This document shows, piece after piece, positions 43,420 to 60,343 of a stretch of 64,000 nucleotides of DNA. The position numbers and the translations under genes were made by a program. The stretch is from Candidatus Poribacteria bacterium. Its GTDB lineage: Bacteria; Poribacteria; WGA-4E; WGA-3G. The notes under the pieces were generated by a model. That model worked only from the letters and a program-made list of their open reading frames with translations, searched no databases and was not told the origin of the DNA. The stretch covers positions 2,528,001 to 2,592,000 of the forward strand of contig OZ242029.1 of NCBI GenBank assembly GCA_965205015.1, given 5' to 3'. How positions within the stretch are numbered: the first letter of the stretch is position 1; the number at the start of each line of letters is the position of its first letter.

Positions 43420-43691
43420 GAGAAACCTCCGCAGAAAAATATCTTATTGAGGCTTTATTTTATGAGGTTTTGGAAAGGATGTCAAGGATTTTTTTGGACG
43501 GCTCACTATGAGTGCGTAGGAGCGCAATTCGTTGTGCCTCTTACATTCGCTTTCATAATGACGCTGAAAAAAAGGTTGTCCTTGAGGGGGATCGCGTGTA
43601 TAATAATAAGGAGCGTGTCTGAGCGTTTTGAAAAAAGTGGGTGTGTGGTGCGATGTTTCCACAGGCACTGCATTTAACAAGGAGAATCGGG

Positions 43692-44546
43692 ATGGCGATG
43701 TATAAAAAGGGGGCGCACCTGAGTTCTGCCCCGACCCAAGAAAGTAGCCTTTACCCAGAAACGGATGGAAAACCGATGGCGGCGAGTGATGATCATAGAC
43801 GTGTCCTAATGCGGGTCTTACGGGTTCTTGAAGCGTTTTTTAGGGAGACTCCGGATGTGTATGTTTCTGGGGATCTCATGATGTATTATGTTCAGGGGGA
43901 TCCACGGAAAGTTGTGTCCCCGGATGTGCTGGTCTCTTTCGGGATAGGTCAGAAGGCGCGACGGACGTATCAGGTCTGGGTGGAGGGCAAACCGCCAGAT
44001 TTTGTGCTGGAGTTGTCAAGTAAAAGCACGTACCAAAAAGACTTGCGGGAGAAGAAGGAACTTTATGCGGGTCTGGGGATTACGGACTACTTCTTATGCG
44101 ATATAGAGGGTCTGTATTTACCGGAGCCTCTGATGGGGTGGACGTTAGTTGATGGGAGTTATCAAGCGATTACGCCGTTGAACGGGGGAGGGTTTGCTTC
44201 TTCGGTGCTTGGGTTAGAGGTGCACCTACTTCCTGGGGATTTACAGTTTTATGACCCGGCCACAGAGCGGTGGCTTCAGACTCCTGAAGAGGCAGCCGAA
44301 GCCCATGCTGCGCAGGAGGGTCTTGCCCGCCAGCAAGCGGAAACCCGTGCGGCGGCAGAAGCGGAGCGTGCTGCGCAGGAGGGTCTTGCCCGCCAGCAAG
44401 CGGAAACCCGTGCGGCGGCGGAAGCGGAACGTGCTGCGCAGGAGGGTCTTGCCCGCCAGCAAGCGGAAACCCGTGCGGCGGCGGCGGAAGCGGAAGCCGC
44501 AGACCTGCGCTCCGAACTGGCACGTTTGCGGGGCAACCTCCCATAG
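43692..44546 (+). CDS. Uma2 family endonuclease with coiled-coil tandem repeats
   Basis: YPETDGKPM, VSPDV, PDFVLELSS, K...YA..GI.DY. Confidence 0.9.
   Translation: MAMYKKGAHLSSAPTQESSLYPETDGKPMAASDDHRRVLMRVLRVLEAFFRETPDVYVSGDLMMYYVQGDPRKVVSPDVLVSFGIGQKARRTYQVWVEGKPPDFVLELSSKSTYQKDLREKKELYAGLGITDYFLCDIEGLYLPEPLMGWTLVDGSYQAITPLNGGGFASSVLGLEVHLLPGDLQFYDPATERWLQTPEEAAEAHAAQEGLARQQAETRAAAEAERAAQEGLARQQAETRAAAEAERAAQEGLARQQAETRAAAAEAEAADLRSELARLRGNLP
44307..44495 (+). repeat. Three 63-bp tandem repeats (AAQEGLARQQAETRAAAEAER)
   Basis: Units start at 44307, 44370, 44433. Confidence 0.95.
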
Positions 44547-44631
44547 ATTTCCCCGCAGCCTTCGGAAACCTCTGTCTTTTGCCACGACCTTCTCACCGTG
44601 TCCCCTCACCACAAGGCGATAAATCGCCTTA

Positions 44632-44940
44632 CTACGAACCTGAACCTGTCCAATCCCATCCCTTTCCATAATCCCGCACCGGATATGTTCGCCAGAGATC
44701 CCGCAGCCATTCAATCCCAAAATGTTTTTCATACCAATGTAAACTTGAGCATGTCGAATCTTTCGGTTTTTGCACGTAGTTATGCTTTGTCGGATTGTAG
44801 TGGATATAGTTCAAGGTTGTATAGTAATGTCTTTCGCTGCGAATCTGTCGATCACTGAAACGATACCAAACTTGCCGTCCAGATAGCGCTTCGCGACGAT
44901 TTAACTCACGTGCTGTAGGGGCATGAACGCGGCGCCAGGG
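44632..44940 (-). pseudogene. REP-associated tyrosine transposase (RAYT) C-terminal remnant
   Basis: RQVWYRFSDRQIRSERHYYTTLNYIHYNPTKH; N-terminal HUH half absent; GTAG REP at its 3' end. Confidence 0.75.
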
Positions 44941-44989
44941 ATACTGCTTTTGAAAAATACACGTATTTCCGAGGTATATCTGTTTATGA

Positions 44990-45081
44990 ATTAATGCTAT
45001 GATATGCGTTTTTATGCTATAATTGTGGTATATTGTGCATAATTATGCGTTTTTATGCTATAATTGTGGTATATTGTGCAT
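44990..45081 (+). promoter_or_regulatory. AT-rich tandem array with extended -10 boxes upstream of mod1
   Basis: TATGCTATAATTGTGGTATATT at 45013 and 45054. Confidence 0.6.
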
Positions 45082-45128
45082 GTTTTTGATATATTTCGCA
45101 ATAATATAAGATTTTTTTAGGAATCCCT

Positions 45129-46826
45129 ATGCCCTCACTCGATTTCAAAGGTAAACAGTTCATTTATGGACATCACCTCACCGTTCCCATCAGTACTATA
45201 GAGATAGATGCAGATAAATCCTTTACTGGCGAAAACGATCCATCCCTAAATGACAACCTGATTATCCACGGCGACAACCTACATGTGTTGAAGGCGCTGC
45301 TCCCCAAATACGCTGGCAAAATCAAGTGTATCTATATTGATCCTCCCTATAACACTGGCAACGAAAAATGGGTCTATAACGACAATGTTAACAATCCGCT
45401 GATGCAAGCGTGGTTGGAGAAACACAGTCCGGTTGATAATGAAGACTTGGAACGTCACGATAAGTGGCTGTGTATGATGTGGCCCCGACTCCATTTATTG
45501 CATGAATTACTGTCCGATGATGGCGTTATTTTTATCTCAATTGATGATAATGAAGTACACAATTTACATTTGCTGATGGATGAGATTTTCGATGGGCTGA
45601 ATTTTATTGCCTGTTTGCCGACTGTTATGAATCTTAAAGGTAACAATGATGAATTTGGATTTGCCGGAACCCATGAATATACTTTCTGCTGGGCGAAGGA
45701 CAAGCAACTTGCCCAAGTTGGCGAGTTTGAATTGGATGAGGAAGAACTAACAGCGTGGTTGGAAGATGATTATGGATATTACAAAAAAGGAGCTAATCTG
45801 AAATCTACTGGCGTGAACGCTCCGAGAGCTAAGAGACCTAATTTGTACTATCCAATATATGTCAATCAGAATAATGAATTGATAGTGACTGAAGATTTAT
45901 CTAAGAATAAGAATTATGAAAAATTATTCCCGATTACAGGTGGAGAAGAGATGAGTTGGCGGTGGAGTAAAGAAAAGGTATCAGCTGAATCTCACAATAT
46001 TATAGTGGAGCGGACGAAATCTGGAATCAGTTTGTTAAAGAAACAGAGGCCTGGTCTCGGTGACTTACCAACTAAAAAGCCGAAGTCTTTGTTTTATAAG
46101 CCTGAATACAGCAGTGGTAATGGAACCGCCGTATTGAAGCAAATATTTGGAAACAGGGAAGTTTTTAATAACCCGAAGCCAGTTCAGCTGCTGAAGGATT
46201 TGATTGGTCTCACTATCAAACAGGACGACATCGTTCTTGACTCCTTCGCTGGCTCAGGTACCACCGCCCACGCTGTCCTCGCACTCAACAAAGAGGATGG
46301 CGGTAATCGAAAATTTATCCTCGTTGAATGCCAAGATTACGCGGACACGGTCACCGCTGAACGCGTCCGCCGTGTTATCAACGGCGTTGAAAATGCCAAA
46401 GATGAGACACTTCAGAACGGCTTAGGTGGCTCCTTCACCTACTGCACCCTCGGTGAACCTATTGACGAGGAAGGCATGCTCACTGGCGAAAATCTTCCGA
46501 CCTACGAGGCTTTAGCGGACTATATCGCCTATACTGCCACCGGGAGTGCGTTGACTTCCATGGCAAAGCCGGAAGATTATTACTTCGGCGAAACTAACAA
46601 CATCCGTTTCTATCTCATCTATGAACCGACGTTAGAATTTTTAGAAAGTGATAAATCTGCGTTAGATGGGGCGCGTGCAGAGCAGATCGCCAAGGTGTGC
46701 AAGGAGACGGGTAAAAAGGCTTACGTCTATGCGCCTCAAAAATTCATCAGCCAGAAAGAGTTAACCGACATAGGGATCACCTTTTGCCAGCTGCCCTACA
46801 ACATCCATCGCATTGCAGATGCGTAG
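45129..46826 (+). CDS. mod: Type III R-M methyltransferase (Mod), copy 1
   Basis: LIIHGDNL, IYIDPPYNTG, VLDSFAGSGTT in beta-class order; res downstream. Confidence 0.92.
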   Translation: MPSLDFKGKQFIYGHHLTVPISTIEIDADKSFTGENDPSLNDNLIIHGDNLHVLKALLPKYAGKIKCIYIDPPYNTGNEKWVYNDNVNNPLMQAWLEKHSPVDNEDLERHDKWLCMMWPRLHLLHELLSDDGVIFISIDDNEVHNLHLLMDEIFDGLNFIACLPTVMNLKGNNDEFGFAGTHEYTFCWAKDKQLAQVGEFELDEEELTAWLEDDYGYYKKGANLKSTGVNAPRAKRPNLYYPIYVNQNNELIVTEDLSKNKNYEKLFPITGGEEMSWRWSKEKVSAESHNIIVERTKSGISLLKKQRPGLGDLPTKKPKSLFYKPEYSSGNGTAVLKQIFGNREVFNNPKPVQLLKDLIGLTIKQDDIVLDSFAGSGTTAHAVLALNKEDGGNRKFILVECQDYADTVTAERVRRVINGVENAKDETLQNGLGGSFTYCTLGEPIDEEGMLTGENLPTYEALADYIAYTATGSALTSMAKPEDYYFGETNNIRFYLIYEPTLEFLESDKSALDGARAEQIAKVCKETGKKAYVYAPQKFISQKELTDIGITFCQLPYNIHRIADA

Positions 46827-46933
46827 TGAACGGTTTGTGTTGTTCATATGTCATCCAATAGGATGAAGGCTGGTGGATTGGTGACGTTTTCATACAATTC
46901 TGCGATGAGTCACCGCGAAAATGAAGGAGAACT

Positions 46934-47395
46934 ATGGAAGAAAAAGTTTCGCAAAAAGTGTTCATTGTCCATGGGCATGACGAGGCAACCAAGTCCGCTG
47001 TTGCAAGGTTCGTAGAAAGACTTGATTTAGAGGCAGTCGTGCTTGCTGAACAGCCCAGTGAGGGTTTGACGATTATTGAAAAGTTTGAAAAATACGCTAC
47101 AAGTGCCGACTTTGCGATTGTCCTGATAACTCCCGACGATGTTGGTGCCTCTATTCAAAAGAAGAGCGATCTCAAACTCAGAGCACGGCAGAACGTTATC
47201 TTTGAACTTGGGTATTTCTTCCATGCGTTAGGGCGTAAAGGCGTTTGTGCTCTCTACAAAGAAGGCGTTGAGCTCCCTTCGGATATTTACGGTGTTGTTT
47301 ATGTCCTTATTGATGAGTTTGATGCATGGCAACTGACACTGGCGAGAGAAATGAGGCAGGCGGGACTATTTTTCGATGCAAACAAACTTTTATAG
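46934..47395 (+). CDS. Stand-alone TIR-like nucleotide-binding protein (CAP12/Pycsar-type TIR)
   Basis: VFIVHGHD, TIIEKFE, LITPDD, RARQNVIFELG, ELPSD. Confidence 0.9.
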   Translation: MEEKVSQKVFIVHGHDEATKSAVARFVERLDLEAVVLAEQPSEGLTIIEKFEKYATSADFAIVLITPDDVGASIQKKSDLKLRARQNVIFELGYFFHALGRKGVCALYKEGVELPSDIYGVVYVLIDEFDAWQLTLAREMRQAGLFFDANKLL

Positions 47396-47557
47396 AACAT
47401 GGAATGTGAAACTCTTGGTAGGATTCTTGTAAGATTGTCCTTCCAAAATTGGGTTTGACGCTACCAACGGATTAATGTTATCATCAATATAGGGTTCTCA
47501 TCTTATACGAGCGGAGGTCTCTCCGCACTGTATCGGCATAAGAATGGAGGAAAAATC

Positions 47558-48016
47558 ATGAACACGAAAAATCGGCGGAACGTTTTTATCTCCCATGGAC
47601 ATGACGAGGAAGCTATAACAACTGTTGCTAAGTTCGTAGAGACATTAGGTGTAAAGGTAACCGTTCTTGACGAACAACCTAAGAAAGGACAAACAATCAT
47701 TGATAGGTTTGAGGAACAGGTAGATGAGGCGGGCTTCGCAATCGTCCTATTGACTCCCGACGATGTTGGTTCCTCAAAAGCCACAGGAAAACGCAAGCCC
47801 AGAGCCCGTCAAAATGTTATCTTTGAACTTGGTTATCTCCTGGGGGGTTTGGGCAGTGAAAGAGTGTGTGCCCTCTATAAAGAAGGCGTTGAGTTACCAT
47901 CCGATATTCGTGATGTAGCCTATATACCCATGGATAGTGCCGATGATTGGAAACTAAAACTCAGTCAGGGCATGCGAAAAGCGGGACTGCCTATTGATAT
48001 GAACTGGGGCAGTTGA
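47558..48016 (+). CDS. Stand-alone TIR-like nucleotide-binding protein, paralogue 2
   Basis: VFISHGHD, LLTPDD, RARQNVIFELG, ELPSD; candidate promoter TTGACG-18-TATCAT at 47455-47484. Confidence 0.9.
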   Translation: MNTKNRRNVFISHGHDEEAITTVAKFVETLGVKVTVLDEQPKKGQTIIDRFEEQVDEAGFAIVLLTPDDVGSSKATGKRKPRARQNVIFELGYLLGGLGSERVCALYKEGVELPSDIRDVAYIPMDSADDWKLKLSQGMRKAGLPIDMNWGS

Positions 48017-48050
48017 AGAAATAGACCCATGGTGAAATAGAGGAGGAACT

Positions 48051-48132
48051 ATGGAAGAGAAAACATTACCAAAGTTTCTTGTGAGCAGAGAAGAAAATAT
48101 AAGAACGAATTAATAAAGGTCAACAACTCCAT
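48051..48132 (+). pseudogene. 5' remnant of a fourth TIR-associated gene
   Basis: MEEKTLPKFLVSREE then frameshifted ERINKGQQ, matching the N-terminus of 48778-49647; GAGGAGG RBS. Confidence 0.6.
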
Positions 48133-48154
48133 TGCTTGATTGCACCATTGGTTT

Positions 48155-48343
48155 GTAGTCGCGCAATTCATTGCGCATAGAAGCAGGCGATAAATCGCCT
48201 TACTACGAAACTGTATCCCAACATTCACCTTGTCCCCTCACCACAAGGCGATAAATCGCCTTACTACGAACCTGAACCTGTCCAATCCCATCCCTTTCCA
48301 TAATCCCGCACCGGATATGTTCGCCAGAGATCCCGCAGCCATT
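48155..48343. repeat. REP doublet plus 113-bp duplicate of the RAYT 3' end/REP
   Basis: GTAGTCGCGCAATTCATTGCGC and GGCGATAAATCGCCTTACTAC; 48231-48343 matches 44599-44711. Confidence 0.8.
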
Positions 48344-48459
48344 AGGGTAAAGTCCAAAAACATGTGAACACAATTCGGACCTGATACTTCACCGCCGCTG
48401 GCGAGGTTTCCTAACCTCGCCGACTCCTAAGTGTCCATTTAATTGTAGGCTTTACTATA
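48343..48459. mobile_element. IS630-type MITE carrying a REP hairpin
   Basis: TA-flanked ends resemble the IS630 TIRs at 51752/52663; REP at 48398-48421. Confidence 0.65.
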
Positions 48460-48580
48460 AACCTAAAGAAACTATCCTTATAAAAATCGGCTAATGTTCT
48501 CGCTTAGCATAGTTTGGCTGTACTTCGTTAATGAACTTTGTTGACCCATTACCTTCGGTCGCTAATTCTTTCATTGATCC

Positions 48581-48690
48581 ATTAATGCTATGATATGCGT
48601 TTTTATGCTATAATTGTGGTATATTATGCGTAATTATGCAATTTATGCTATAATTGTGGTATATTATGCGTAATTATGCTATAATATGAT
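48581..48690 (+). promoter_or_regulatory. Second AT-rich tandem extended -10 array
   Basis: 48581-48625 matches 44990-45034; motif repeats at 48604, 48644 and partially 48675. Confidence 0.6.
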
Positions 48691-48777
48691 GTATTATGAT
48701 GTAATGTTATGTTCTAATTTCATATTAACAGGGATGTTTTTGAAGTGCCGCGTCGCCACAAAAATGGAGGGAAGATT

Positions 48778-49647
48778 ATGGATGGGAAAAATCGGCGGAA
48801 AGTATTTATGGAAGAGGAAATTCTACCAAAGTTACCAAAACTACACGAAAGTAAAGAAGTAGCACGTCAGAAAATACAAGAGCGAATTTATAAGGGGCAG
48901 CAATTCCGCGACCGACAGATAGATACAAAGGATGAATTGGAAAATGCCGTAGAAAAATGTGAAAGATGGTCAGCATATAACGAATGCCTCTTATCTAACC
49001 TATTTGATAAAATGCCAAGAAGGGGTTATTATTCTGGCTTCTCTGGTCGGGGTATTACTTACTTTGGCACTGGTCTCGGATTGCCTGTGCGTGAACCTGC
49101 TTTTTCACAGAAATTGGACAAATATCGGAAATCTATGAAATCCAGCATTGTTAGTTTGGAAGGGATCCTTGACCTACTTGAGCTATGTAGCGAACCATTA
49201 GACATCGCCCTGCGCACTTCGGGTAACACTGAGCCCTACGTTTTTATCGGACATGGGCGTTCACAGAATTGGCGAGAGCTCAAAGATTTTATAAGCGATG
49301 AACTGAAACTGCCTTGGGATGAATTCAACCGAGTTCCAGTTGCTGGTGTAACCAATATTGCACGCCTTGATGAAATGTTGGGGCAGGCGTGTATGGCATT
49401 CCTTGTGATGACAGCTGAGGATGAACAAGCTGATGGCAAATTACGCGCCCGTGAAAATGTGGTTCATGAAGCTGGTCTGTTTCAAGGTAGACTTGGTTTT
49501 GAAAGGGCAATTGTTTTACTTGAAGAGGGCTGTCAGGAATTTAGCAACATTCAGGGGCTTGGTCAGATTCGCTTTCCTAAAGGGAATATAAAGGCAGCCT
49601 TTGAGGAAATTCGTCAAGTCTTAGACCGGGAAGGAATAATCCGATAA
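48778..49647 (+). CDS. TIR-like nucleotide-binding protein with helical N-terminal domain
   Basis: VFIGHGRS, MTAED, RARENVVHEAGLFQG, FSNIQGL. Confidence 0.88.
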   Translation: MDGKNRRKVFMEEEILPKLPKLHESKEVARQKIQERIYKGQQFRDRQIDTKDELENAVEKCERWSAYNECLLSNLFDKMPRRGYYSGFSGRGITYFGTGLGLPVREPAFSQKLDKYRKSMKSSIVSLEGILDLLELCSEPLDIALRTSGNTEPYVFIGHGRSQNWRELKDFISDELKLPWDEFNRVPVAGVTNIARLDEMLGQACMAFLVMTAEDEQADGKLRARENVVHEAGLFQGRLGFERAIVLLEEGCQEFSNIQGLGQIRFPKGNIKAAFEEIRQVLDREGIIR

Positions 49648-49727
49648 CTCAATAGAGGTTTCCCAATTTAAACCGCGCAATAATTTCCTTGATACATTAA
49701 GTCTATATTTTTCTTAAGGATTCCTTA

Positions 49728-51422
49728 ATGCCCACACTCGATTTCAAAGGTAAACAGTTCATTTACGGACACCACCTCACCGTTCCCATCAGTACTATAG
49801 AGATAGATGCAGATAAATCCTTTACTGGCGAAAACGAGCCATCACTCAATGATAACCTTATTATCCACAGTGACAACCTACACGCCCTGAAAGCACTTCT
49901 CCCGAAATACGCTGGCAAAATCAAGTGTATCTACATCGATCCTCCGTATAATACCGGCAACGAAAGTTGGGTCTATAACGACAACGTCAACAGTCCCTTA
50001 ATGCAAGCGTGGTTGGAGAAACACAGCCCGATTGATAACGAAGACTTGGAACGTCATGATAAATGGTTGTGTATGATGTGGCCCCGACTCCACTTATTGC
50101 ATGAATTGCTGTCCGATGATGGTGTTATTTTTATCTCAATTGATGACAATGAACAACATCGCTTGCAGATGCTGATGGACGAGATTTTTGGATTAGAGAA
50201 TTCTATTGCACAAATAGTTGTACAGACAAATCCACGTGGACGTTCTTTGAAACAATATATCGCGCAAACTCACGAATATGTTCTAATGTACGCTAAAGAT
50301 ATAAAGATGACGGAAGTTTATAAAATTCCGAAAACAGAAAAATCTCTTTCAGAATACAATAAAGAGGATAAGGACGGTTCCTATCGTCTTTTACGTTTAC
50401 GAAATACTGGAGTCCAATTTTTCAATCGGAAGACCCGCCCTAATTTATTTTTTCCTATCTATGTCAACCCAATAACTGGAGATACTTCTCTTATTCCGAG
50501 TGTGGATTTTTCTATTGAAGTTTTGCCAATAACTGACGATGGAGTGGAAGGGTGTTGGACTTGGGGCAAAGAAAAAATTAACGAAGCTCCAGGGTTGATT
50601 GTGGCTCAAAAAGTCCAAAATGGTAAATGGCGGATTTACCGTAAAGACTATTTAAAAGGCGAAAGTCTGCTGACGATGCCTAAATCTCTTTTGACCGGTA
50701 CAGAGGTTAATCATGAGGTTGGTAAGGAAATGCTAAGGAAATTATTTTCCGCTGCTCCTTTTGCGTATCCCAAATCAACAGAACTTATAGCAAATTTAGT
50801 ACGGATCGCTTGTAAGGATGATGCGATTGTTCTTGATTCCTTTGCAGGCAGCGGCACCACCGCTCATGCTGTCCTCGCACTTAACAAAGAGGATGGTGGA
50901 AACCGAAAGTTTATCCTCGTTGAATGCGAAGACTATGCAGACACCATCACCGCTGAACGCGTCCGCCGTGTTATCAACGGCGTTGAAAATGCCAAAGATG
51001 AGACACTTCAGAACGGCTTAGGTGGTTCCTTCACCTACTGCACCCTCGGTGAACCTATTGACGAGGAAGGCATGCTCACTGGCGAAAATCTTCCGACCTA
51101 CGAGGCTTTAGCGGACTATATCGCCTATACTGCCACCGGGAGTGCGTTGACTTCCATGGCAAAACGGGAAGATTATTACTTCGGCGAAACTAACAACATC
51201 CGTTTCTATCTCATCTATGAACCGACACTACAATTTCTGGAGAGCAATAGGTCTGCGTTAGATGGCGAACGTGCAGAGCAGATCGCCAAGGTGTGCAAAG
51301 AGAGGGGTAAAAAGGCTTACGTCTATGCACCGCAGAAGTTCATCAGTCAGAAAGAGTTGACAGATATGGGGATTACCTTCTGCCAGCTGCCCTACAACAT
51401 CCATCGCCTTGCCGACGTGTAG
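49728..51422 (+). CDS. mod: Type III R-M methyltransferase (Mod), copy 2 with different TRD
   Basis: Near-identical N- and C-termini to 45129-46826, highly diverged central region. Confidence 0.92.
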   Translation: MPTLDFKGKQFIYGHHLTVPISTIEIDADKSFTGENEPSLNDNLIIHSDNLHALKALLPKYAGKIKCIYIDPPYNTGNESWVYNDNVNSPLMQAWLEKHSPIDNEDLERHDKWLCMMWPRLHLLHELLSDDGVIFISIDDNEQHRLQMLMDEIFGLENSIAQIVVQTNPRGRSLKQYIAQTHEYVLMYAKDIKMTEVYKIPKTEKSLSEYNKEDKDGSYRLLRLRNTGVQFFNRKTRPNLFFPIYVNPITGDTSLIPSVDFSIEVLPITDDGVEGCWTWGKEKINEAPGLIVAQKVQNGKWRIYRKDYLKGESLLTMPKSLLTGTEVNHEVGKEMLRKLFSAAPFAYPKSTELIANLVRIACKDDAIVLDSFAGSGTTAHAVLALNKEDGGNRKFILVECEDYADTITAERVRRVINGVENAKDETLQNGLGGSFTYCTLGEPIDEEGMLTGENLPTYEALADYIAYTATGSALTSMAKREDYYFGETNNIRFYLIYEPTLQFLESNRSALDGERAEQIAKVCKERGKKAYVYAPQKFISQKELTDMGITFCQLPYNIHRLADV

Positions 51423-51449
51423 TAAGCGGTTTGCATTGTGTCTATTTAC

Positions 51450-51478
51450 TTGACCTCACTATAAATTTATGCTATACT
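51450..51478 (+). promoter_or_regulatory. Sigma70 promoter of PIN toxin operon
   Basis: TTGACC-17 nt-TATACT with TGn extension. Confidence 0.6.
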
Positions 51479-51751
51479 TATTAGTAGCATCTACTTAAAG
51501 GAGGACGGGACTGATCGGAAAGCAAAGAATTTATGAAAACTAAGCCCCGTATTTACGTAGAAACTTCGGTCATTAGTTATCTCACTTCAAGAGCAAGTCG
51601 TGATTTTATTGTCTCTATGTGTCAGCAGATAACTCGCTATTGGTGGGACAACGTCGCGAATCGAAAATTTGAGCTCGTTTCTTCAGCAGTTGTTAGACAG
51701 GAAATCAGTCGGGGAAATACAGACGCAGCACAACAGCGTCTTGACATATTA

Positions 51752-52663
51752 TAGTAAAGTCGATAATTAGTTATACACTTTTATAATTTGTTCAATAGAT
51801 GTTTCAGGGGTGTATTGATAGCGTCGCTTAATGTTAGCAAAGTCCTTCTCAATGGGGTTCAACTCCGGAGAATACGGCGGCAAAAATAATAAACTCGTCC
51901 CCGTTTGGGCAATCAACTGTGCTGTCTCCGACCCCTTGTGGAAGGAGGCATTATCCATAATCACGACGTGTTTCTCATCAAGCAAAGGACATAACTGATG
52001 CTCTAACCACGCATTGAAGGCAAGCGTATCAGAGGCACCTTGAAAAAGCACAGGAGCGGTAAAACGATCTCCAATGCGTGCGGCAATCAAAGAGGTAGAT
52101 TCATACCGATGTGAACCCGATATTTTATCCCTGACGCAGACGCCCCTCGGGGCGTAAGCATACCGACGGATATCTGAAGTCGGGAAACCGCTTTCATCAA
52201 TATAAACGGGCGTTTTCCCCCCGACCCGAACTTCAGCATCAAACGCATCAAAATAGACTTGGCGTTTTTCGACAGACTGTTCTTTATACGTTAGTGTCTT
52301 TTTTTTCGCGTGATGTTGAGTTTGCCAAGCGCATAGTTGATACAACTCTTGGAAATCCCAAAGTGGGTAGCACGTTCGAGTTGGGTGTGGTCAGGAAAAT
52401 CAGCGACATGTTGCCGAAGGGCGTTGTAGTCAAGTCGATGAGGCCCCCGGGGCCCCGGCTTTCGACGACTCAACGGGTCTTCGGCAGCTAACCATTTATA
52501 GATACACGTCCGAGACACCTTATAGGTGCGTGAGGCTTCGGATTTACTGCCACCATCACTGAGAAAATCAAGCACGCATTTGCGTAAATCTGATGAATAA
52601 CTCATAAGACTTAGAGTCTTACATTCACTCAAAAATATGTCAACTTATTTTTCGACTTCACTA
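51752..52663 (-). mobile_element. IS630-family insertion sequence
   Basis: TIR TAGT(A/G)AAGTCGA, TA target duplication at 51750-51 and 52664-65. Confidence 0.92.
51767..52605 (-). CDS. IS630 transposase, two ORFs probably joined by a frameshift
   Basis: HTH ORF (YSSDLRK) and DDE ORF (IDESG, MDNASFH, SPELNPIE) overlap at an A8G run near 52300. Confidence 0.85.
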
Positions 52664-52874
52664 TAAAAGCAATCACCGTATTAGAAACCGTTGTGTAGGA
52701 CTTATACAAATCTCACAAATATGGTAAAATGTATACGAATCTATACACATCTGACATATTTGCTTGAGTGTTGCCATACTTCCTGCTTCGTCGTTTCGTG
52801 CCTCTCTATTGAGGTCTTACCGAAACTCGACAGGCGTTTAGCGTCTCCGCGCAACTCGTGGCGACGTGTGAAGG

Positions 52875-53972
52875 TCAAGCGGGACAGAGATTGATTGCAG
52901 CGTTCAAATCACGGTCCATATCCATACCACAGACGTCGCAGTGATATTGCCTATCTGAAAGCGTTAGGTCTTTTTTCTTCTGTCCACAACGGCTACAGGT
53001 CTTACTCGAAGCAAAGAATCTATCTGCTTCGGTTATCGGTATCCCGCGTCTCTCTGCTTTATATTTCAGCATAGTTAGAAAGCGAGAGAGTGCCGAGTCT
53101 GAGAGGGCTTTAGCAAGTTTCCGATTACGTAGAAGTCCGCTGATATTCAGCATTTCTATACCGATAGCACTGGACCTGCGGACGATCTTTGTCGTCGCTT
53201 GGTGGTGAGCGTCTTCACGGATATTAGAGATGCGATGATGCACACCGCCAAGTCGTTTTTTGGCTTTATACCAGTTCTTTGACCCAAGCACCTTACGCGA
53301 TAATGACCGATTCGCACGTGCTAACTTTCGCTCATATCGCTTCAGGGGGCGTGGATTCTCGTAGGTATCACCATTAGAACAGGTCGCCAGTGTATTGATA
53401 CCTACATCAATACCCATCGGTGCTTTCTCTTGTTTTTCAAAGAGAGAGGGTTGGTGTTTGTAGTTGTTGCTATCGCACCGCACGAGAAGAGAGGCATACC
53501 ATTTATCGTTGCGTCTTGAGATAGACACTCTCGTGATTTCGCCTGTGTATCGGAGGTCCTCACGCATGCGGACCCACCCGATTTTCGGCAGGTGGATACG
53601 CTTTTTGTGGACTTCTACAGTTCCGGCTCCATTGTCTGCTTGGTATGAACATTTACCACTTCGTTTCTTACGGACGGGGAACCTGTTTTGTCCTTTTTTC
53701 CAGCGGGTGAGGGCGTCTCCGAAGTTGTGGATAGCATTCTTGGAGGCATTTTGGGATAACTCTGAACACCAAGGGAACAAATCACGCTTGACGGCATTGA
53801 ACTCACGCTTTATATCCACATGGCTGCGCCATTCGCCTTGTTTCTGTCCCGATTGGAAAGACGACGCGGCGAAGTTATACGCAACACGAGCATAGCCAGC
53901 GTGCTGTGCCATGAGCGTCGATTGTTTGTTATTCGGATTCAGTTCTATCTGCTGGGCTCGGAGAACTTCCAA
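52875..53972 (-). CDS. tnpB: RNA-guided endonuclease TnpB
   Basis: RuvC GIDVG, GIEML, DRDLNAAINL; CSRC/CDVC zinc ribbon. Confidence 0.93.
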   Translation of the reverse strand: MEVLRAQQIELNPNNKQSTLMAQHAGYARVAYNFAASSFQSGQKQGEWRSHVDIKREFNAVKRDLFPWCSELSQNASKNAIHNFGDALTRWKKGQNRFPVRKKRSGKCSYQADNGAGTVEVHKKRIHLPKIGWVRMREDLRYTGEITRVSISRRNDKWYASLLVRCDSNNYKHQPSLFEKQEKAPMGIDVGINTLATCSNGDTYENPRPLKRYERKLARANRSLSRKVLGSKNWYKAKKRLGGVHHRISNIREDAHHQATTKIVRRSSAIGIEMLNISGLLRNRKLAKALSDSALSRFLTMLKYKAERRGIPITEADRFFASSKTCSRCGQKKKDLTLSDRQYHCDVCGMDMDRDLNAAINLCPA

Positions 53973-54603
53973 AACTTAACTCCAGTTGCGATTTTGCTTC
54001 TGCTACGATATTCTCTATTTGCTCTGCCATTTTCTTTGACTTATGGGAACGACGCCCATAAAGTTTGGCACAAAACACTGTCATGATTTCCATGACATCA
54101 TCAGTGAGTTCTTCTTCAAAAGAAGGGGGTTCGCCTTTATTGATAATCACAATCTCAATACCTTTGAGTTCACAGATACGAAATATCAAGTCCGCACCAA
54201 AGCGTAAAAGACGGTCTTTGTGAGTTAGCACAAGTCGTGACATTTTACCCTGCACAATCAGGTCTAAAAGGCGTACTAAGCCTTTATTGTTGTAGTTCAT
54301 ACCACTGCCAAGGTCTCTTATGATTTCAGTCTGCCACCCCTTCTTATTGCAAAACGCTTCAAGGACGGCGTGCTGACGCTCTAAATCCTCCTTCTGATCG
54401 CTACTGGAGACTCTGGCATAAGCAATGGTAGGATAGGAGTCGTCTTTAGCCCCTAATAACTCTTGGAGACTGTAGAGGCGAGTGCCTTTCGGAGTTCGCT
54501 TAAATGGCTTAATAACACCACCATCTTCCCAACGCCGGAGCGTTTGAGGATTCACACCGAGTATTTTAGCAGCTTCGCCAATCTTCACAAATCTGTCATT
54601 CAT
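53929..54603 (-). CDS. tnpA: IS607 serine recombinase TnpA
   Basis: MerR-like HTH, YARVSS, DLGSGMN, KDRLLRFG. Confidence 0.93.
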   Translation of the reverse strand: MNDRFVKIGEAAKILGVNPQTLRRWEDGGVIKPFKRTPKGTRLYSLQELLGAKDDSYPTIAYARVSSSDQKEDLERQHAVLEAFCNKKGWQTEIIRDLGSGMNYNNKGLVRLLDLIVQGKMSRLVLTHKDRLLRFGADLIFRICELKGIEIVIINKGEPPSFEEELTDDVMEIMTVFCAKLYGRRSHKSKKMAEQIENIVAEAKSQLELSFGSSPSPADRTESE

Positions 54604-54610
54604 ACTAATT

Positions 54611-54639
54611 ATTATAGTATTTTTACAAAGCTTTGTCAA
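54611..54639 (-). promoter_or_regulatory. Consensus promoter for leaderless tnpA
   Basis: TTGACA-17 nt-TATAAT, 7 nt before ATG 54603. Confidence 0.7.
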
Positions 54640-54973
54640 GAGAAAAATATCAATGTATAGATGTGAATAAGAATGTATAGATTTGACTATATTTTACTAT
54701 ATTTTTCGCTGCTGCAACTTGCCCCTTTAGCGGAGATGTATCCTCTTGCGGAGGATTTGGTTGCTGCCGGGGCTGTCCCGCTAAGAGCAAAAACAGACGC
54801 ACTTCATATTGCGATTGCGGCGATTCATGGTGTGGAATATCTGGCGACATGGAATTTTAAGCATATCGCGAACACAAACAAGTTACCTTTAATACACAAG
54901 GTGTGTGAAACCGCAGGTTATACGCCTACAACTATTTGCACCCCTTTGGAATTTTTGTGGGAGGCTTTTTGAA

Positions 54974-55204
54974 ATGTTCAAGGACCCAATTATTGAGGAA
55001 ATCCACCGGATCCGTGACGAATGGGCGGCTTCTTTCCAGTACGATTTACGGGCACTCTGTGAGGACATCAAACGGCAAGAGAAACGGGACTTTCTCACCG
55101 ATGAACACGGAAACTTCATAAAAAACGAAAAAGGAGGCTTGATTCTTAAGTCTAAAGTTGTTCGCGGGAAAACCTCCGGTTTCGAGAAGAAGCACCGTAG
55201 TTAA
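54974..55204 (+). CDS. Small partner of PIN toxin (putative antitoxin)
   Basis: DPIIEEIHRIR...YDLRALCEDI motif typical of genes downstream of this PIN family. Confidence 0.7.
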   Translation: MFKDPIIEEIHRIRDEWAASFQYDLRALCEDIKRQEKRDFLTDEHGNFIKNEKGGLILKSKVVRGKTSGFEKKHRS

Positions 55205-55288
55205 CCGACGTTGCTGCTTAGCGAATTCTAAACCCTAAGAATATAGAATTTTCTTCGTTGCATGTCTGCAAAAAGGAGGACGGAATCG

Positions 55289-55504
55289 GTGACACAAACC
55301 TACACCGCAGTCATCCAACAGGACGAAGGCTGGTGGATCGGGTGGATACAGGAAATTCCCGGTGTAAACGGCCAAGAACGGACGAAGGACGAATTGCTTG
55401 AATCGCTGCGAATTACGCTCCTCGAAATGATAGAATACAATCGCGAAGAGGCAATTCGCCGAACAGAGAGTGAGACTTTTGAGGAAGTTACGATCGCGCT
55501 ATGA
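55289..55504 (+). CDS. hicB: HicB-family antitoxin (orphan)
   Basis: YTAVIQQDEGWWIGWIQEIPGVNGQERT; AGGAGG RBS. Confidence 0.8.
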   Translation: MTQTYTAVIQQDEGWWIGWIQEIPGVNGQERTKDELLESLRITLLEMIEYNREEAIRRTESETFEEVTIAL

Positions 55505-55580
55505 AAGGGTGCGGTTAGGAAACCGTACTACCGAGTCTGGAGATTTGTGAATTTGAAAATTTACTGTAGGTGATGAAATA

Positions 55581-58223
55581 ATGGAACTGAAAGAGTACCA
55601 ACAACAGGCATTGGATGCGTTGGACCGCTATCTGGAGGCACTCAAGGAAGCACACCAACAAGCGGATAAAGCCACCGCATACCTTGCATCAGAGGGGATT
55701 CCGGACTTCCTGATAGAGCAGGCGGAGAATTTAGCAAGACAAGCAGAGGATTACCCACACATTGCTTGGGAAAGTTTACGACAAGCCGCTATATTGCCGG
55801 GCATCACGGATGCACAAGGACAGGACCGAATTCCAGAACACATCTCTCGTGAGAGTGCCGCCGGTGAACCGATTCCGCATGTCTGCTTAAAAGTCCCGAC
55901 GGGGGGTGGGAAGACTCTATTAGGTGTAGAGGCGGTGCGCCACTTGAAACTCGGTACAGGTTTTGTGCTATGGCTTGTCCCGACCAAAGCCATCTATACG
56001 CAAACGTGGGACGCTTTTCGCAACAAAGAACATCCGTATCGGCAAATTTTGGAACGTGCCTCCGGCGGTCGCGTTAAGCTCCTCGAAAAAGACGATAGGT
56101 TCACGAAGCAGGATATTGAGAATCATCTCTGTGTGATGCTCCTTATGCTCCCTGCCGCAAATCGGAACCGAAACAAAGAGTTCCTGAAGATTTTTCGAGA
56201 TAGTAGCGGTTATGCCTCGTTCTTTCCTGTCGAGGACGACGTGCGAGAGCATCAGGCACTCTCAGAAAAACATCCCGACCTTGAAACAGCAGAAGATGAT
56301 CAAACCGCACAACCCCGGCTCGCCAGAAACCCCAAAGACGCACTCATCAAACAGAGTCTTTTTAACGTCCTGAAGTTACTCCGTCCAACCGTGATTTTAG
56401 ATGAGGCGCATAAGGCTTACGGAAGTCCTGACATGGTCCGCAATAAAGGCTTTGTGGAAGCGGTAAATCGACTCAATCCTCGCTTCGTGTTGGAACTCTC
56501 CGCCACACCGAAACTCGGTATCAGCAACATCCTCGTCAATATCTCCGGTCTCACCCTGAAAGAAGAGGAGATGATGAAACTCCCGATTCAACTCCGAAAT
56601 TTCCCGAATTCCGATTGGAGATATACGCTCGGACAGACGAAAATAGAGCGCGATAGACTTGAAGGGGTAGCAAAGCAATTTCAGCAAACAGAGGACCGCT
56701 ATATCCGACCGATTGCTGTGATTCGTGTCGATCGGACCGGCAAAAACCAACGCGACGGTACGAAGGTCCATGCCGAGGATGCTCGTGAAGAACTCATTGA
56801 GGCATTAGGAGTGCCAGCGGAACAGATCAAGGTGAAATCATCAGAACAAGATGAACTCACAGGAATAGACCTCATGAGTCCCTTCTGTCCTGTCCGTTAT
56901 ATCATTACCAAAGATGCCTTGAAAGAGGGGTGGGACTGTCCGTTTGCTTACCTGCTTGCCCTTCTTGACAACACCACCGCACCGACAGCAATGACGCAGC
57001 TCATCGGGAGGGTGATGCGCCAACCCTACGCCCGTGTCACAAACCGACCGGAACTCGATAGTTGTTATATCTTCTGTTACAATCAGGAGGTCAAAGGGGC
57101 AGTAGAGAACGTCAAGAAAGGATTAGAGGCAGAAGGGTTGACAGAATTAGGCGACTTTGTTGAGGGGACGGGTGTGGAGCGCGTGCAGCGAACCATCGAA
57201 CGTAAACAGGAATACCGTGAGATAGACATCTTTCTACCGCGTGTTCTGCATAAGCAGGGACGAGGGTGGCGGGAACTCAATTATGAGCGGGACATCCTGA
57301 AGGCAATTGACTGGCATCAACTCGGTCCGGTAGCCCCTATCAACTTCGACGAGACGGCACCACTTCAAGAGATCCGTGCCACTATCCATCTCCAAGACGA
57401 AGCGGTAATTCATAAGAAATTGCAAGAGAGCGCGGCACATAACTTGGAGGTAGCGTTTTTCGTTCGGCGACTCGGCGATGTGCTGCCGAATCCGTGGCAC
57501 GCTGCACGCATCGTGAAAGCCACACTTGCTGCTTACCGGGAAGAAGGCGTTGGCGAAGATACGTTGTATACACACCGGTTGTATCTCTCCGAGCATTTGA
57601 AACGCTGTTTGCGCGATCGCATTGATAAGTTTGCTGAAGCCGTTTTTCGAGAGAAGTTGAAAGCCGGAGAAATCCAGTTTAACCTGGAAACAGATGTGGC
57701 GTTAAACTACCAACTGGAAAAAACGATTGCGATCAGTCTCACACCTGAAGCAAGGCCGATGATACATCCACACGGCGATCCGTTACAACTCAACCTTTTT
57801 GAACAGGTGTTTGAAGCGGAATTTAACAACTTGGAAACGGATTTTGCACTCTATTTGGACAAACAGAACGCGATTCAGTGGTGGCATCGCATTGCCGTGA
57901 AGCAGGGGTATTTCTTGCAAGGGTGGCGACGCGACCGCGTCTATCCCGATTTTATTGCGTGTCTCCAAAGGAGTGAAACGGGATCCCAACGGCTCTGTCT
58001 CTTTGAAACCAAAGGGCAGCACCTTGAAGGGAATCGGGACACTACGTATAAACAGCAGCTCATTGAAACGTTAGAGACAGCCTACCGAAACGCCACGCAA
58101 CACGGCACGATGAATATCACGGTGTCTAATAACAAAACGATGTCTTTCCGTATGTTATTTGAAGATTCGTGGTATGAAACGGTGAATGAAACCATCGCTG
58201 ATGTTTATAAGCAGAGTTCATGA
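55581..58223 (+). CDS. res: Type III R-M restriction subunit (Res)
   Basis: VPTGGGKT, DEAH, SATP, EGWDCP, QLIGR, YPDF...ETKG nuclease. Confidence 0.92.
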   Translation: MELKEYQQQALDALDRYLEALKEAHQQADKATAYLASEGIPDFLIEQAENLARQAEDYPHIAWESLRQAAILPGITDAQGQDRIPEHISRESAAGEPIPHVCLKVPTGGGKTLLGVEAVRHLKLGTGFVLWLVPTKAIYTQTWDAFRNKEHPYRQILERASGGRVKLLEKDDRFTKQDIENHLCVMLLMLPAANRNRNKEFLKIFRDSSGYASFFPVEDDVREHQALSEKHPDLETAEDDQTAQPRLARNPKDALIKQSLFNVLKLLRPTVILDEAHKAYGSPDMVRNKGFVEAVNRLNPRFVLELSATPKLGISNILVNISGLTLKEEEMMKLPIQLRNFPNSDWRYTLGQTKIERDRLEGVAKQFQQTEDRYIRPIAVIRVDRTGKNQRDGTKVHAEDAREELIEALGVPAEQIKVKSSEQDELTGIDLMSPFCPVRYIITKDALKEGWDCPFAYLLALLDNTTAPTAMTQLIGRVMRQPYARVTNRPELDSCYIFCYNQEVKGAVENVKKGLEAEGLTELGDFVEGTGVERVQRTIERKQEYREIDIFLPRVLHKQGRGWRELNYERDILKAIDWHQLGPVAPINFDETAPLQEIRATIHLQDEAVIHKKLQESAAHNLEVAFFVRRLGDVLPNPWHAARIVKATLAAYREEGVGEDTLYTHRLYLSEHLKRCLRDRIDKFAEAVFREKLKAGEIQFNLETDVALNYQLEKTIAISLTPEARPMIHPHGDPLQLNLFEQVFEAEFNNLETDFALYLDKQNAIQWWHRIAVKQGYFLQGWRRDRVYPDFIACLQRSETGSQRLCLFETKGQHLEGNRDTTYKQQLIETLETAYRNATQHGTMNITVSNNKTMSFRMLFEDSWYETVNETIADVYKQSS

Positions 58224-58251
58224 AACTTTCTGTCCTATAAATTCTTAAAAT

Positions 58252-58365
58252 TATGGTAAACCCGAAAAATAAAGACCTTTCAGTGGAACAGTCCCCTTGT
58301 ACCACTGGCGAGGTTTCCTAACCTCGCCGACGCAAAGGGTTTAATTAATTCTAATATCTACCCTA
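58252..58365. mobile_element. IS630-type MITE carrying a REP hairpin, copy 2
   Basis: TATGGTAAA...TCTACCCTA ends; REP at 58305-58328. Confidence 0.55.
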
Positions 58366-58394
58366 AATGACCCTATTCAATCGCCTATTTTGAT

Positions 58395-58423
58395 TTGACA
58401 TCACTGCGAATTCGTGCTATACT
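58395..58423 (+). promoter_or_regulatory. Sigma70 promoter
   Basis: TTGACA-17 nt-TATACT with TGn extension. Confidence 0.65.
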
Positions 58424-58452
58424 TTTTTCATCGTCTCAAAGGAGGAAAACAG

Positions 58453-59064
58453 ATGGCATTTACGGATTTCAAATCCATTGCACAAGTTCAGGAAACTTTT
58501 GACATTAGATATAGCGAAGCGGACTACATCCAATACACCCCTAATATTGAACCCTCCTCGGCGTTTTTGGAAGAGTTTACATTTAGCCGGGAACATATCG
58601 ACGTATTTGCCTCAGAGACCTCCCGGTGTGAGAATGTGATCTACCCGATTCTCAGAGATGTTTACAAAAGGTATGTAGACTGTTTTTCATTGTGGAGCCA
58701 TAAATCTATCGCTTACGACGCGCAACTGAGTGGTGCGCCTGATTACCTTATCTCAACAAGATCGGCATTAGGAAAAACCGTGCTTGGGACTCCGATCATT
58801 GTTGTCGTGGAAGCAAAACGGAACGATTTTATCGAAGGATGGGGGCAGTGTCTGGCGGAATTGGTTGCAATTCAAAAAATTAAAGATGATGACATCAGCC
58901 CTGTTTATGGCATTGTAACCGATGGTGAGTTGTGGCAATTCGGGAGGTTAACGAAGGATTTGTTTACACGGCACAAGACAGCACTTTCCATCGGCGAGTT
59001 AGAACGAGTGTTTGGCGCGATAGCGTATTTAATGCAGACCCATTTACCGGAGGCGACGGCATAA
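58453..59064 (+). CDS. PD-(D/E)XK-fold protein (HsdR N-terminal-like)
   Basis: GAPDY...VVEAK...GQCLAEL, YGIVTDG.LWQF. Confidence 0.7.
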   Translation: MAFTDFKSIAQVQETFDIRYSEADYIQYTPNIEPSSAFLEEFTFSREHIDVFASETSRCENVIYPILRDVYKRYVDCFSLWSHKSIAYDAQLSGAPDYLISTRSALGKTVLGTPIIVVVEAKRNDFIEGWGQCLAELVAIQKIKDDDISPVYGIVTDGELWQFGRLTKDLFTRHKTALSIGELERVFGAIAYLMQTHLPEATA

Positions 59065-59104
59065 TTCTGTCCTATCTTAAAATACAATACCTTGGAGATT
59101 ACTT

Positions 59105-60343
59105 TTGAACATTGATACATTAAAAGGAAAAACGGTTGGAGCTGCCGTCTCAGGTGGTTTAGATAGTTGCACCATCACGAAGTGGTTGGTCGATAACGGG
59201 GTCAAGGTCGTCTGTTTTACGGCGGACCTCGGACAACCTGACGAACGGGACGTTTCTGAAATCCGGGAACGGATGTTGGCATGCGGTGCTGAAGACGCCA
59301 TTATTGTCGACGCGAAAGACGCACTTGCGGAAGCGGGTATCCGCCTCGTCCAGTGTCAAGCCATGTATGAAGGCGGGTATTGGAATACAACTGGCATCGC
59401 GCGACATGTCACCGTGAAAGCACTCCTGCCGGAGATGGAAAGACGCGGTATCACCATCTTAACACACGGTGCCACGGGTCGAGGCAACGATCAGGTGCGG
59501 TTTCAACTCGCCACCAATATGCTCAATCCACATTTTTCTGTCTACGCACCGTGGCGGGATCCGAGCTTCCTCAAAATCTTCGGTGGCAGGAAAGAGATGA
59601 TAGACTTCTGCCAAGCACATCACCTACCGATTACTGCGACACACGAGAAACCGTATTCAACCGACGCGAACCTGTTGGGACTCACACATGAAGCCGGACG
59701 GCTCGAATCGTTGAAAACCCCGGCAGGATTTATCAGCCCCGGTATGGGCGTGCATCCGAAAGACGCCCCTGATGACGTGGAGCACTTTACGGTTACCTTT
59801 GCACGTGGGACACCTGTTGAGGTTAACGGGAGCCCTGTTACACCGCTCCAGGGTCTGTTAGAGGCGAATCGTATCGGTGGACGAAATGGGATTGGGATCG
59901 GTATTCACACCGTTGAAAACCGGTTCGTCGGGATTAAGAGTCGTGGTGTTTATGAATCTCCGGGGATGGAATTGCTTGGGAAGTGTTACGAGTTTCTGCT
60001 CCAGTTGATTTTAGATAGACGCGCACGCCGACACTTTGAGGGGGTAGCCACCACGATTGCGGAGCAGATATATCAAGGGTACTGGTTCGATGCTGCGACG
60101 CAAGCATTACTCTCTTCTATTGAACCGCTCACGAACTTAGCGAGTGGAACGATCACAGTGGCACTCTACAAGGGGAATGTCGCCTTCTATACTGCTGGTG
60201 GTGTCCCACACTCGCTCTACTCCGAAGAGACCGCCTCTATGGAGGCGATTGGTGACTTCGATCACGCGGATTCAGAAGGGTTTTTAGCAGTGCTTGGGGT
60301 TGGTGCACGTGCCTCAGCTGTTGCTGGGCAGACAGAGGCATAG
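59105..60343 (+). CDS. argG: Argininosuccinate synthase
   Basis: SGGLDS, HGATGRGNDQVRF, ENRFVGIKSRGVYE. Confidence 0.95.
   Translation: MNIDTLKGKTVGAAVSGGLDSCTITKWLVDNGVKVVCFTADLGQPDERDVSEIRERMLACGAEDAIIVDAKDALAEAGIRLVQCQAMYEGGYWNTTGIARHVTVKALLPEMERRGITILTHGATGRGNDQVRFQLATNMLNPHFSVYAPWRDPSFLKIFGGRKEMIDFCQAHHLPITATHEKPYSTDANLLGLTHEAGRLESLKTPAGFISPGMGVHPKDAPDDVEHFTVTFARGTPVEVNGSPVTPLQGLLEANRIGGRNGIGIGIHTVENRFVGIKSRGVYESPGMELLGKCYEFLLQLILDRRARRHFEGVATTIAEQIYQGYWFDAATQALLSSIEPLTNLASGTITVALYKGNVAFYTAGGVPHSLYSEETASMEAIGDFDHADSEGFLAVLGVGARASAVAGQTEA

Follow-up and report, generated by a model that had tools for sequence, protein, structure and literature searches.

The window, a stretch of 64,000 nucleotides (nt) from the genome of a Candidatus Poribacteria bacterium (assembly GCA_965205015.1, contig OZ242029.1, positions 2,528,001 to 2,592,000), contains three genes for TIR-domain proteins, here called TIR1, TIR2 and TIR3, within the operon of a restriction-modification (R-M) system. 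The genes follow each other on the forward strand in the order mod1, TIR1, TIR2, TIR3, mod2, a small gene split by insertion sequences (IS), two small open reading frames (ORFs) and res (Table 1). Mod and Res are encoded together at the one locus, which identifies the host operon as type III R-M. The ORF scan yielded 52 non-overlapping ORFs of at least 80 residues in the window, all of which were scanned with Pfam, and PADLOC profiles were run on six genes of the locus. A preliminary description of this DNA had reported three intact TIR ORFs with a putative catalytic glutamate between the mod copies, and the coordinates, motifs and PF10137 scores all agree with it.

Table 1. Features of the TIR-bearing type III R-M locus, with positions in the window.
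Feature	Position	Strand	Remarks
41-bp tandem promoter-like repeats, each with TGCTATAAT	44983-45094	+	Immediately 5' of mod1; belongs to the first copy of an upstream block that is present twice
mod1, type III methyltransferase allele 1, 565 residues	45129-46826	+	Pfam N6_N4_Mtase 2.7e-34; PADLOC MTase_III 1.2e-161
32-nt scar of small HicB/UPF0150-like gene	46850-46881	+	After mod1; stop inside
TIR1 (TIR-a), bare CAP12/Pycsar-class TIR, 153 residues	46934-47395	+	PF10137 133.5 bits, 4.7e-39; motif NVIFELG
Sigma-70-type promoter in TIR-a/TIR-b spacer	47455-47484	+	TTGACG, 18 nt, TATCAT; TG before -10
TIR2 (TIR-b), bare paralogue of TIR1, 152 residues	47558-48016	+	PF10137 126.4 bits, 7.6e-37; motif NVIFELG
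Truncated start of long PDC-S35-type TIR gene	48051-48113	+	20 codons, then stop; intact counterpart L003:1471
Repeat block of palindromic GGCGATAAATCGCC units, second copy	48225-48343		99% identical to 44593-44711
40/41-bp promoter-like perfect tandem repeats with TGCTATAAT, second copy	48574-48684	+	5' of TIR3
TIR3, long form	48778-49647	+	Listed ORF 48745-49647 (300 residues); PF10137 75.3 bits, 5.3e-21; motif NVVHEAG
mod2, type III methyltransferase allele 2, 564 residues	49728-51422	+	PADLOC MTase_III 1e-166; central target-recognition region differs from mod1
Weakly PIN-like gene, 163 residues	51533-54972	+	In two parts, 51533-51754 and 54673-54972; the intact L085 orthologue reaches 19.3 bits in Pfam (below cut-off)
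IS630-type element inside PIN-like gene	51767-52632	-	
IS607-type element inside PIN-like gene	tnpB 52875-53972; tnpA 53929-54639	-	
Small HicB/UPF0150-like gene, 80 residues	55262-55504	+	Weak Pfam match, 15.5 bits
res, type III restriction subunit, 880 residues	55581-58223	+	Pfam ResIII 2.7e-13; PADLOC REase_III 7.7e-232, residues 1-867

All three TIR proteins score above the gathering cut-off of 24.7 bits of the Pfam family PF10137 (CAP12-PCTIR_TIR). TIR1 and TIR2 are 55% identical to each other, and TIR3 is 30% identical to TIR1 over the TIR domain. In a profile alignment, the motif glutamate of the window TIRs aligns with the glutamate of "RDNVVFEFG" in the solved Cap12 chains 9lmq and 7un8, and the glutamate of the R..NV..E.G signature is invariant in 20 of 20 relatives of TIR1 and TIR2 and in 30 of 30 relatives of TIR3. 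Cap12 (the TIR-STING of CBASS) and PycTIR of Pycsar (PDB 9lmq, 7un8 and 8jsj) are the sole solved relatives found by sequence, and they share with the window TIRs both PF10137 and the catalytic-type glutamate motif. A published atlas of TIR proteins has PF10137 only in a CAP12/Pycsar clade of NADase effectors, and TIRs of this class turn into NADases on oligomerisation, as outlined in the available portion of a recent preprint (bioRxiv 10.64898/2026.04.30.722052). Cap12 and PycTIR differ from the window TIRs in their accompaniment, since Pfam scans of the 52 window ORFs found no CD-NTase or other cyclase and no STING, cNMP-binding, SIR2 or SLOG family, nor did the TIR genes themselves give a Pfam match to a fused STING, cNMP-binding or SAVED domain. 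The preliminary description, which had seen no CD-NTase, STING or cNMP-binding domain at the locus and had read the proteins as NADase-effector-class TIRs with no cyclase or sensor gene nearby, is thus borne out, the class being assigned from PF10137 and the alignment of the glutamate with that of Cap12. The NCBIfam equivalog models of Cap12 reached 31-40 bits against a cut-off of 450 bits; therefore, the window TIRs are not CBASS or Pycsar effectors.

TIR1 and TIR2, referred to below as TIR-a and TIR-b, are bare domains of about 150 residues, as had been noticed before. The PADLOC candidate profile PDC-S35 matches them with E-values of 1.2e-68 and 6.2e-62 solely over positions 115-262 of its 264, the C-terminal half with the TIR, whereas its match to TIR3 (E 1.1e-13) extends over positions 22-244. 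The PDC-S35 architecture of an N-domain followed by a C-terminal TIR, about 230-280 residues in all, is found in TIR3 alone, and there is no room upstream of TIR1 or TIR2 for an N-domain. Full-length PDC-S35 members adjoin Mod at three of the genome loci compared, which are designated by L-numbers (L003, L015 and L020; E 1e-71 to 1e-76). The ratio of nonsynonymous to synonymous substitution rates (dN/dS) is 0.07-0.20 for TIR1 against seven orthologues and 0.14-0.27 for TIR2 against five, so that 12 of 12 comparisons fall within 0.07-0.27, which indicates that the pair is under purifying selection. A protein collection holds dozens of 153-residue proteins that are 82-97% identical to the bare TIR, and 118 of the 121 TIR1-like sequences matched in 150 genomes are free of internal stops. 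The possibility that TIR1 and TIR2 are decaying fragments of PDC-S35 genes was ruled out by dN/dS and the conserved length.

As judged from these profile matches, TIR1 and TIR2 are not an unlisted family and belong to PDC-S35, and the earlier view of the module as undescribed did not hold; the idea of embedding is itself in print. In the accessible part of Payne et al. (bioRxiv 10.1101/2024.01.29.577857), 145 PDCs are put forward on the principle of "guilt-by-embedding", with type I R-M, BREX and DISARM as the hosts, and they are presented there as candidates only. The window TIRs resemble this set in being embedded in a defence operon built around DNA modification; TIR-a and TIR-b correspond to the TIR half of PDC-S35, and TIR3 shares its N-domain. 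They differ in that the host operon is type III rather than type I R-M, BREX or DISARM, and in that PDC-S35 is a single gene, whereas the window has a fixed pair devoid of the N-domain and a third gene with a TIR of another subfamily. The embedding concept and, through PADLOC-DB, the candidate family are therefore already in print, as far as the available text of these sources goes. What is new are the phylum-wide numbers, the paired form without N-domain and its promoter, and the finding that the TIRs outlast R-M genes. The TIR survey of Yirmiya et al. discarded stand-alone TIRs, and our literature search on TIR genes in type III R-M, on TIR with R-M in Poribacteria and on COG4271 turned up nothing about a locus of this type, nor any paper on PDC-S35 itself.

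The clade-a and clade-b genes in a quick tree are all bare and all poribacterial, and a clade-b gene comes next after the clade-a gene in 17 of 17 loci in which the contig continues. Six further a/b pairs were found by their tblastn pattern. A gene for the N-domain alone, as expected of a split form, does not accompany the a/b pair in any locus examined. The spacer between TIR-a and TIR-b is 146-165 nt long, and in all 19 loci aligned its TTGAC and TGnTATAAT boxes hardly vary. Because the coding flanks are only about 60% identical, the conservation of the boxes argues that TIR-b has its own conserved promoter, which probably also drives the genes 3' of TIR-b. Scans for terminators and promoters gave nothing else that was informative. 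A natural fusion of a TIR-b-type and a TIR3-type protein, with two PF10137 stretches in 314 residues, is encoded at L007:10686-11630.

TIR3 combines an N-domain of about 135 residues of the PDC-S35 type with a TIR of a second PF10137 subfamily, which forms a separate, strongly supported clade of nine rows in the quick tree. The N-domain aligns with that of the full-length PDC-S35 member L020 with an hhalign probability of 99.3%. Since homologues of TIR3 begin with MEE(K)xLPKL, the start proper to TIR3 is the ATG at 48808; the ATG at 48778, with its strong GGAGG ribosome-binding site, is what is left of a TIR2-like start, 10 codons (48778-48807) fused in frame to TIR3. The TIR of this type is 80-85% identical to the TIR of proteins of about 367 residues from several phyla, which is an unusually high identity for a defence effector. 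These longer proteins (P0180, P0184, P0235 and others) come from Cyanobium, Halomonas, Anaerolineales and further groups, and their N-terminal region is longer than that of TIR3.

A profile of the N-domain found 2563 representative proteins with E up to 0.001. Among the best 148 of these 2563, PF10137 is carried by 73, DpnII-MboI by three, TIR_2 by three, TIR, GGDEF and EAD7 by two each, and SieB and Hypoth_Ymh by one each; the remainder of the 148 have no Pfam match with E up to 1e-5. On this distribution, the N-domain appears to behave as a swappable sensor or adaptor module. In the loci examined it was only ever seen joined in frame to a TIR, or separated from the TIR by a frameshift. Comparison of the N-domain profile with PDB sequences returned nothing significant, the best match being an unrelated protein with E 0.009. 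In Muiribacteriota (L042:3178-4532), a bare TIR of 154 residues is followed after 39 nt by a 292-residue protein with a C-terminal DpnII-MboI nuclease. SpbK of the Bacillus subtilis element ICEBs1 is likewise a single-gene protein with an N-domain and a TIR, as are TIR3 and the other long forms; in the accessible text on that system (PMC12847820), the phage portal protein YonE clusters the TIR domains into head-to-tail assemblies and so activates the NADase. By analogy, TIR3 and the other long forms are best modelled for now on SpbK, with the differences that profile searches of PDB sequences detected no sequence relationship and that SpbK is carried by an integrative and conjugative element instead of an R-M operon and has no bare TIR partners.

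The linkage of these genes to type III R-M was assessed from both sides; many of the genomes are incomplete metagenome-assembled genomes (MAGs), and absence means not found in those searched. In TIR-first sampling, for which 80 loci were collected with the TIR profile, a Mod or Res homologue lies within 10 kb in 13 of the 80 loci and in 11 of the 18 that are titled Poribacteria. Of the 150 genomes sampled from the phylum, 100 have a member of the Res family. For R-M-first sampling, 60 Res loci were fetched and classed by the identity of their Res to that of the window. Res is at least 68% identical in 43 loci, three of which end too early; TIR genes are present in 22 of the other 40 and absent from 18. 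At least one TIR gene in each of the 22 lies upstream of Mod on the same strand with a gap of about 15-150 nt. Loci with a Res of 56-57% identity (local tblastn) have no TIR in four of four cases, and three of 13 loci with a Res of 46-49% identity have one. An unbiased TIR search of the same 150 genomes gave 121 matches in 67 genomes, which form 79 clusters, and at least 33 of the clusters have a Res within 15 kb, some contigs being short. With about half a TIR cluster per genome of 5-6 Mb, rough arithmetic puts chance adjacency of TIR and Res well under 1%. The link of the TIRs to type III R-M is real within the lineage and far beyond chance, and the co-occurrence of TIR with mod and res that the preliminary description had raised is thereby put in numbers. 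TIR genes are nested between R-M genes in the window and in L003, L006 and L009. Homologues beyond Poribacteria and Latescibacterota are nearly always of the long form (55 of 59 ORFs exceed 240 residues). Beyond Poribacteria, the neighbours are varied, with R-M or BREX in four of the 40 loci scanned out of 59 and type III in none of them.

Ordered adjacency of this kind could reflect a restriction guard, in which the TIRs would be held inactive on Mod and/or Res and would become active once an anti-restriction factor of a phage has put the complex out of action, like PrrC with EcoprrI. The same-strand order TIR-Mod-Res with short gaps in 22 of the 40 close loci speaks for such a guard. So does the finding that eight of the ten determinable clade-a loci of the TIR-first sampling are at the R-M family of the window, and TIRs without a sensor would need some restraint. 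PrrC, the gene of which is nested between the genes of the type I R-M system EcoprrI according to Payne et al., is a suicide effector in a comparable position. It differs in being an anticodon nuclease that occurs almost only in type I R-M, whereas TIRs of the window type are often found without R-M. Nesting between R-M genes is thus common to both, and near-exclusive occurrence with R-M is a property of PrrC that the TIRs lack, since 46 of the 79 TIR clusters among the matches listed have no Res within 15 kb.

Twenty of the 46 clusters without a listed Res were fetched. In nine of these, either a Mod without Res is present or remnants of Mod, Res or the HicB-like gene are left; these scars show common descent, which counts in favour of a guard. 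Open TIR frames adjoin Mod stubs of 46, 88, 54 and 25 residues (L142, L145, L146 and L161, respectively). L002, which is syntenic with the window on both flanks, has the TIR-a/TIR-b pair only, without Mod or Res. The three genomes compared as G001-G003 have no PF10137 match besides the a/b pair, which in G002 lies 3 Mb from the only listed Res. The TIRs of L010 follow a type I-like hsdM-hsdS instead. Other neighbours of TIR clusters are SIR2-APAZ with short pAgo, a CBASS cyclase with a 4TM effector, a Gabija/PARIS-like ATPase, bSEFIR and PDC genes. The family also occurs without R-M in other phyla and on plasmids, where it was found in 1163 plasmid records, 617 of them from Klebsiella. One Escherichia coli IncF plasmid (L141; NZ_OQ029478.1, 11692-12591) encodes a 299-residue "nucleotide-binding protein" of the PDC-S35 type that overlaps an upstream ORF of 96 residues and adjoins pifC, a P-loop NTPase and vapBC.

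The TIRs thus have a history in common with R-M loci, persist after these have gone, and reside in defence islands. Their persistence beside Mod and Res stubs and in other defence islands argues for an autonomous NADase module and not for a guard triggered by Mod/Res. Together with the 18 of 40 close R-M loci that have no TIR, it tells against the earlier proposal that the TIRs are triggered by inhibition of Mod/Res, and we regard a restriction guard as unlikely. Direct sensing of phage proteins by the TIRs, which had been offered as the other option, is possible.

We consider it fairly likely that the three genes make up either one or two self-contained modules for abortive infection, built on CAP12/Pycsar-class TIRs and carried along in a type III R-M operon. 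The TIRs are co-inherited with the R-M operon and probably co-transcribed with it. In the uninfected cell, the TIRs would remain unassembled. In the long form, the N-domain may detect a phage cue, to which the sensor-less a/b pair would respond too, perhaps as a hetero-oligomer. The cue would induce the head-to-tail assembly of TIRs, and the assembled TIRs would hydrolyse NAD+ by means of the glutamate of the NV..E.G motif, so that growth stops before a phage that has escaped restriction can finish its cycle. The R-M operon would provide linkage and co-regulation, not the trigger. The locus extends to type III R-M the published pattern in which a defence operon harbours further defence genes, and the counts given here cover an entire phylum. 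It also singles out a widespread candidate TIR family, with more than 1000 plasmid records that include Klebsiella and E. coli. The minimal form, two TIRs of 150 residues with no sensor domain and a promoter of their own, would be a clean system in which to study how the NADase of a bare TIR is switched on and off.

Several points weigh against this interpretation. The bare a/b TIRs have no sensor domain that would account for their trigger and restraint. They may require a partner, because TirC of Dictyostelium, described in the available portion of the preprint cited above as a small, self-assembling, TIR-only protein with potent NADase activity, is spontaneously toxic in heterologous hosts. 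TirC resembles the bare a/b TIRs in being a CAP12/Pycsar-class TIR without a sensor domain and differs in being a eukaryotic, horizontally acquired single gene. So strong and orderly an adjacency to a single R-M family would likewise follow from functional coupling. The clades a and b and the TIR3 clade were taken from a quick tree, not from a careful search. Finally, no paper was found, supplements aside, on NADase activity, toxicity or phage protection of PDC-S35. The a/b pair might instead be a sensor-less hetero-oligomeric NADase that is licensed by the state or a product of the type III Mod/Res complex, which we hold to be distinctly unlikely. If true, this would be the first case of a type III restriction enzyme with a guard, with the R-M enzyme acting as the infection sensor for a TIR suicide effector, and dependence of the pair on Mod or Res would make it a new kind of guard.

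The obligate pairing of TIR-a with TIR-b, the separate conserved promoter of TIR-b and the persistence of TIRs beside decayed R-M genes are also features of an addictive, toxin-antitoxin-like pair, in which a poison and its partner would stabilise the island and so outlive R-M, defence being secondary. The spontaneous toxicity of TirC, a related small TIR, is in keeping with this idea. Both paralogues, however, keep all invariant TIR motifs and the glutamate, and therefore neither resembles a dedicated inhibitor. Long single-gene relatives without a partner exist, and the pair sits in defence-island contexts. We judge an addictive pair improbable, and continue to favour the self-contained abortive-infection modules.

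Consecutive TIR genes recall Thoeris systems, which can hold multiple ThsB genes. The window TIRs might accordingly make a signal derived from ADP-ribose for a nearby effector, possibly Res or the conserved small genes. TIR signalling has by now been linked to about 30 types of effector. Against such signalling, the window TIRs belong to PF10137 and not to the ThsB family PF08937, and the atlas places PF10137 among NADase effectors. Pfam and PADLOC found no PF08937, SIR2, SLOG, Macro or DUF2270 in the window, which has no ThsA or other known effector, and G001-G003 have only the pair. A Thoeris-like mechanism is thus very improbable. Type V Thoeris, which consists of a TIR, a small membrane protein and a second TIR, was considered and rejected, since the locus has neither a TIR of that class nor a membrane ORF.

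The organism is a sponge-associated Poribacterium, and bacterial TIR proteins that mimic host adaptors exist. The proteins could in principle be eukaryote-like and directed at the host, with the sponge symbiont interfering with host TIR signalling. However, no signal peptide is visible at the N-termini, the genes reside in R-M operons and defence islands, and both free-living bacteria and enterobacterial plasmids carry close relatives. We regard a host-directed function as extremely improbable in comparison with an abortive-infection module that serves the bacterium itself.

The two methyltransferases of the host operon are 69% identical. Their first approximately 150 and last approximately 210 residues are almost identical, and the middle is divergent. 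Two mod alleles with a single res suggest multi-specificity or recombinational switching of type III specificity. The order Mod-Mod-Res was also seen in the Poribacteria loci L117, L118 and L140. The distance of 4.1 kb between mod2 and res results from the two IS insertions, of IS630 and IS607 type. The HicB/UPF0150-like gene is kept between Mod and Res in many related loci (L081-L096), with or without TIRs, and might encode a regulator; the labels PIN-like and HicB-like denote Pfam scores below threshold. DNA contigs from three runs of one study, which perhaps derive from the same source sample, span 46601-48260 and 48650-49757 with zero differences and bear out the local junctions. The independent MAG contig L003 has the same order Mod-TIRa-TIRb-longTIR-Mod, which is presumably the older arrangement.

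The locus is a mosaic. The block 5' of mod1, in which the palindromic repeat and two promoter-like repeats of 41 bp are found, recurs 5' of TIR3. The tandem repeats may be duplicated promoters or operator sites; their exact 21-nt motif was found in none of 140 loci. The scar of the HicB/UPF0150-like gene, which is 32 nt long in the window, is the same 5' of TIR-a in L002 and L004. The 20-codon start of a long TIR gene after TIR2 is a recombination scar. Low-depth contig joints (45301>50169 and 45493>50169) skip about 4.7-4.9 kb between the mods and might represent recombinants of mod1 and mod2 without TIRs, or other strains; their sides are shorter than 30 letters, which makes them unreliable. 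A search of 43500-59500 against Rfam with E up to 0.1 gave zero matches, and a transposase-like reading of an ORF fragment beside the palindromic repeats had no library support.

A further repeat pair (48395-48424 and 58302-58331) is built of the short palindromic units GGCGAGGTTTCCTAACCTCGCC. The summed contig depth of the GGCGATAAATCGCC and GGCGAGGTTTCCTAACCTCGCC units is very high in one metagenome run, and these units look like a dispersed repetitive extragenic palindromic (REP)-like element. A PD-(D/E)xK protein is encoded after res at 58414-59064 and matches the PADLOC Cas-associated model PD_DExK (2e-45); a relative of it (L159:6236-7021) precedes a TIR-Mod pair in another genome. Upstream of mod1, a Uma2-family protein (43641-44546) has a C-terminal repeat rich in alanine, glutamate and arginine, which arises from 2.8 copies of a 63-bp unit with 98% matches at 44306-44484.

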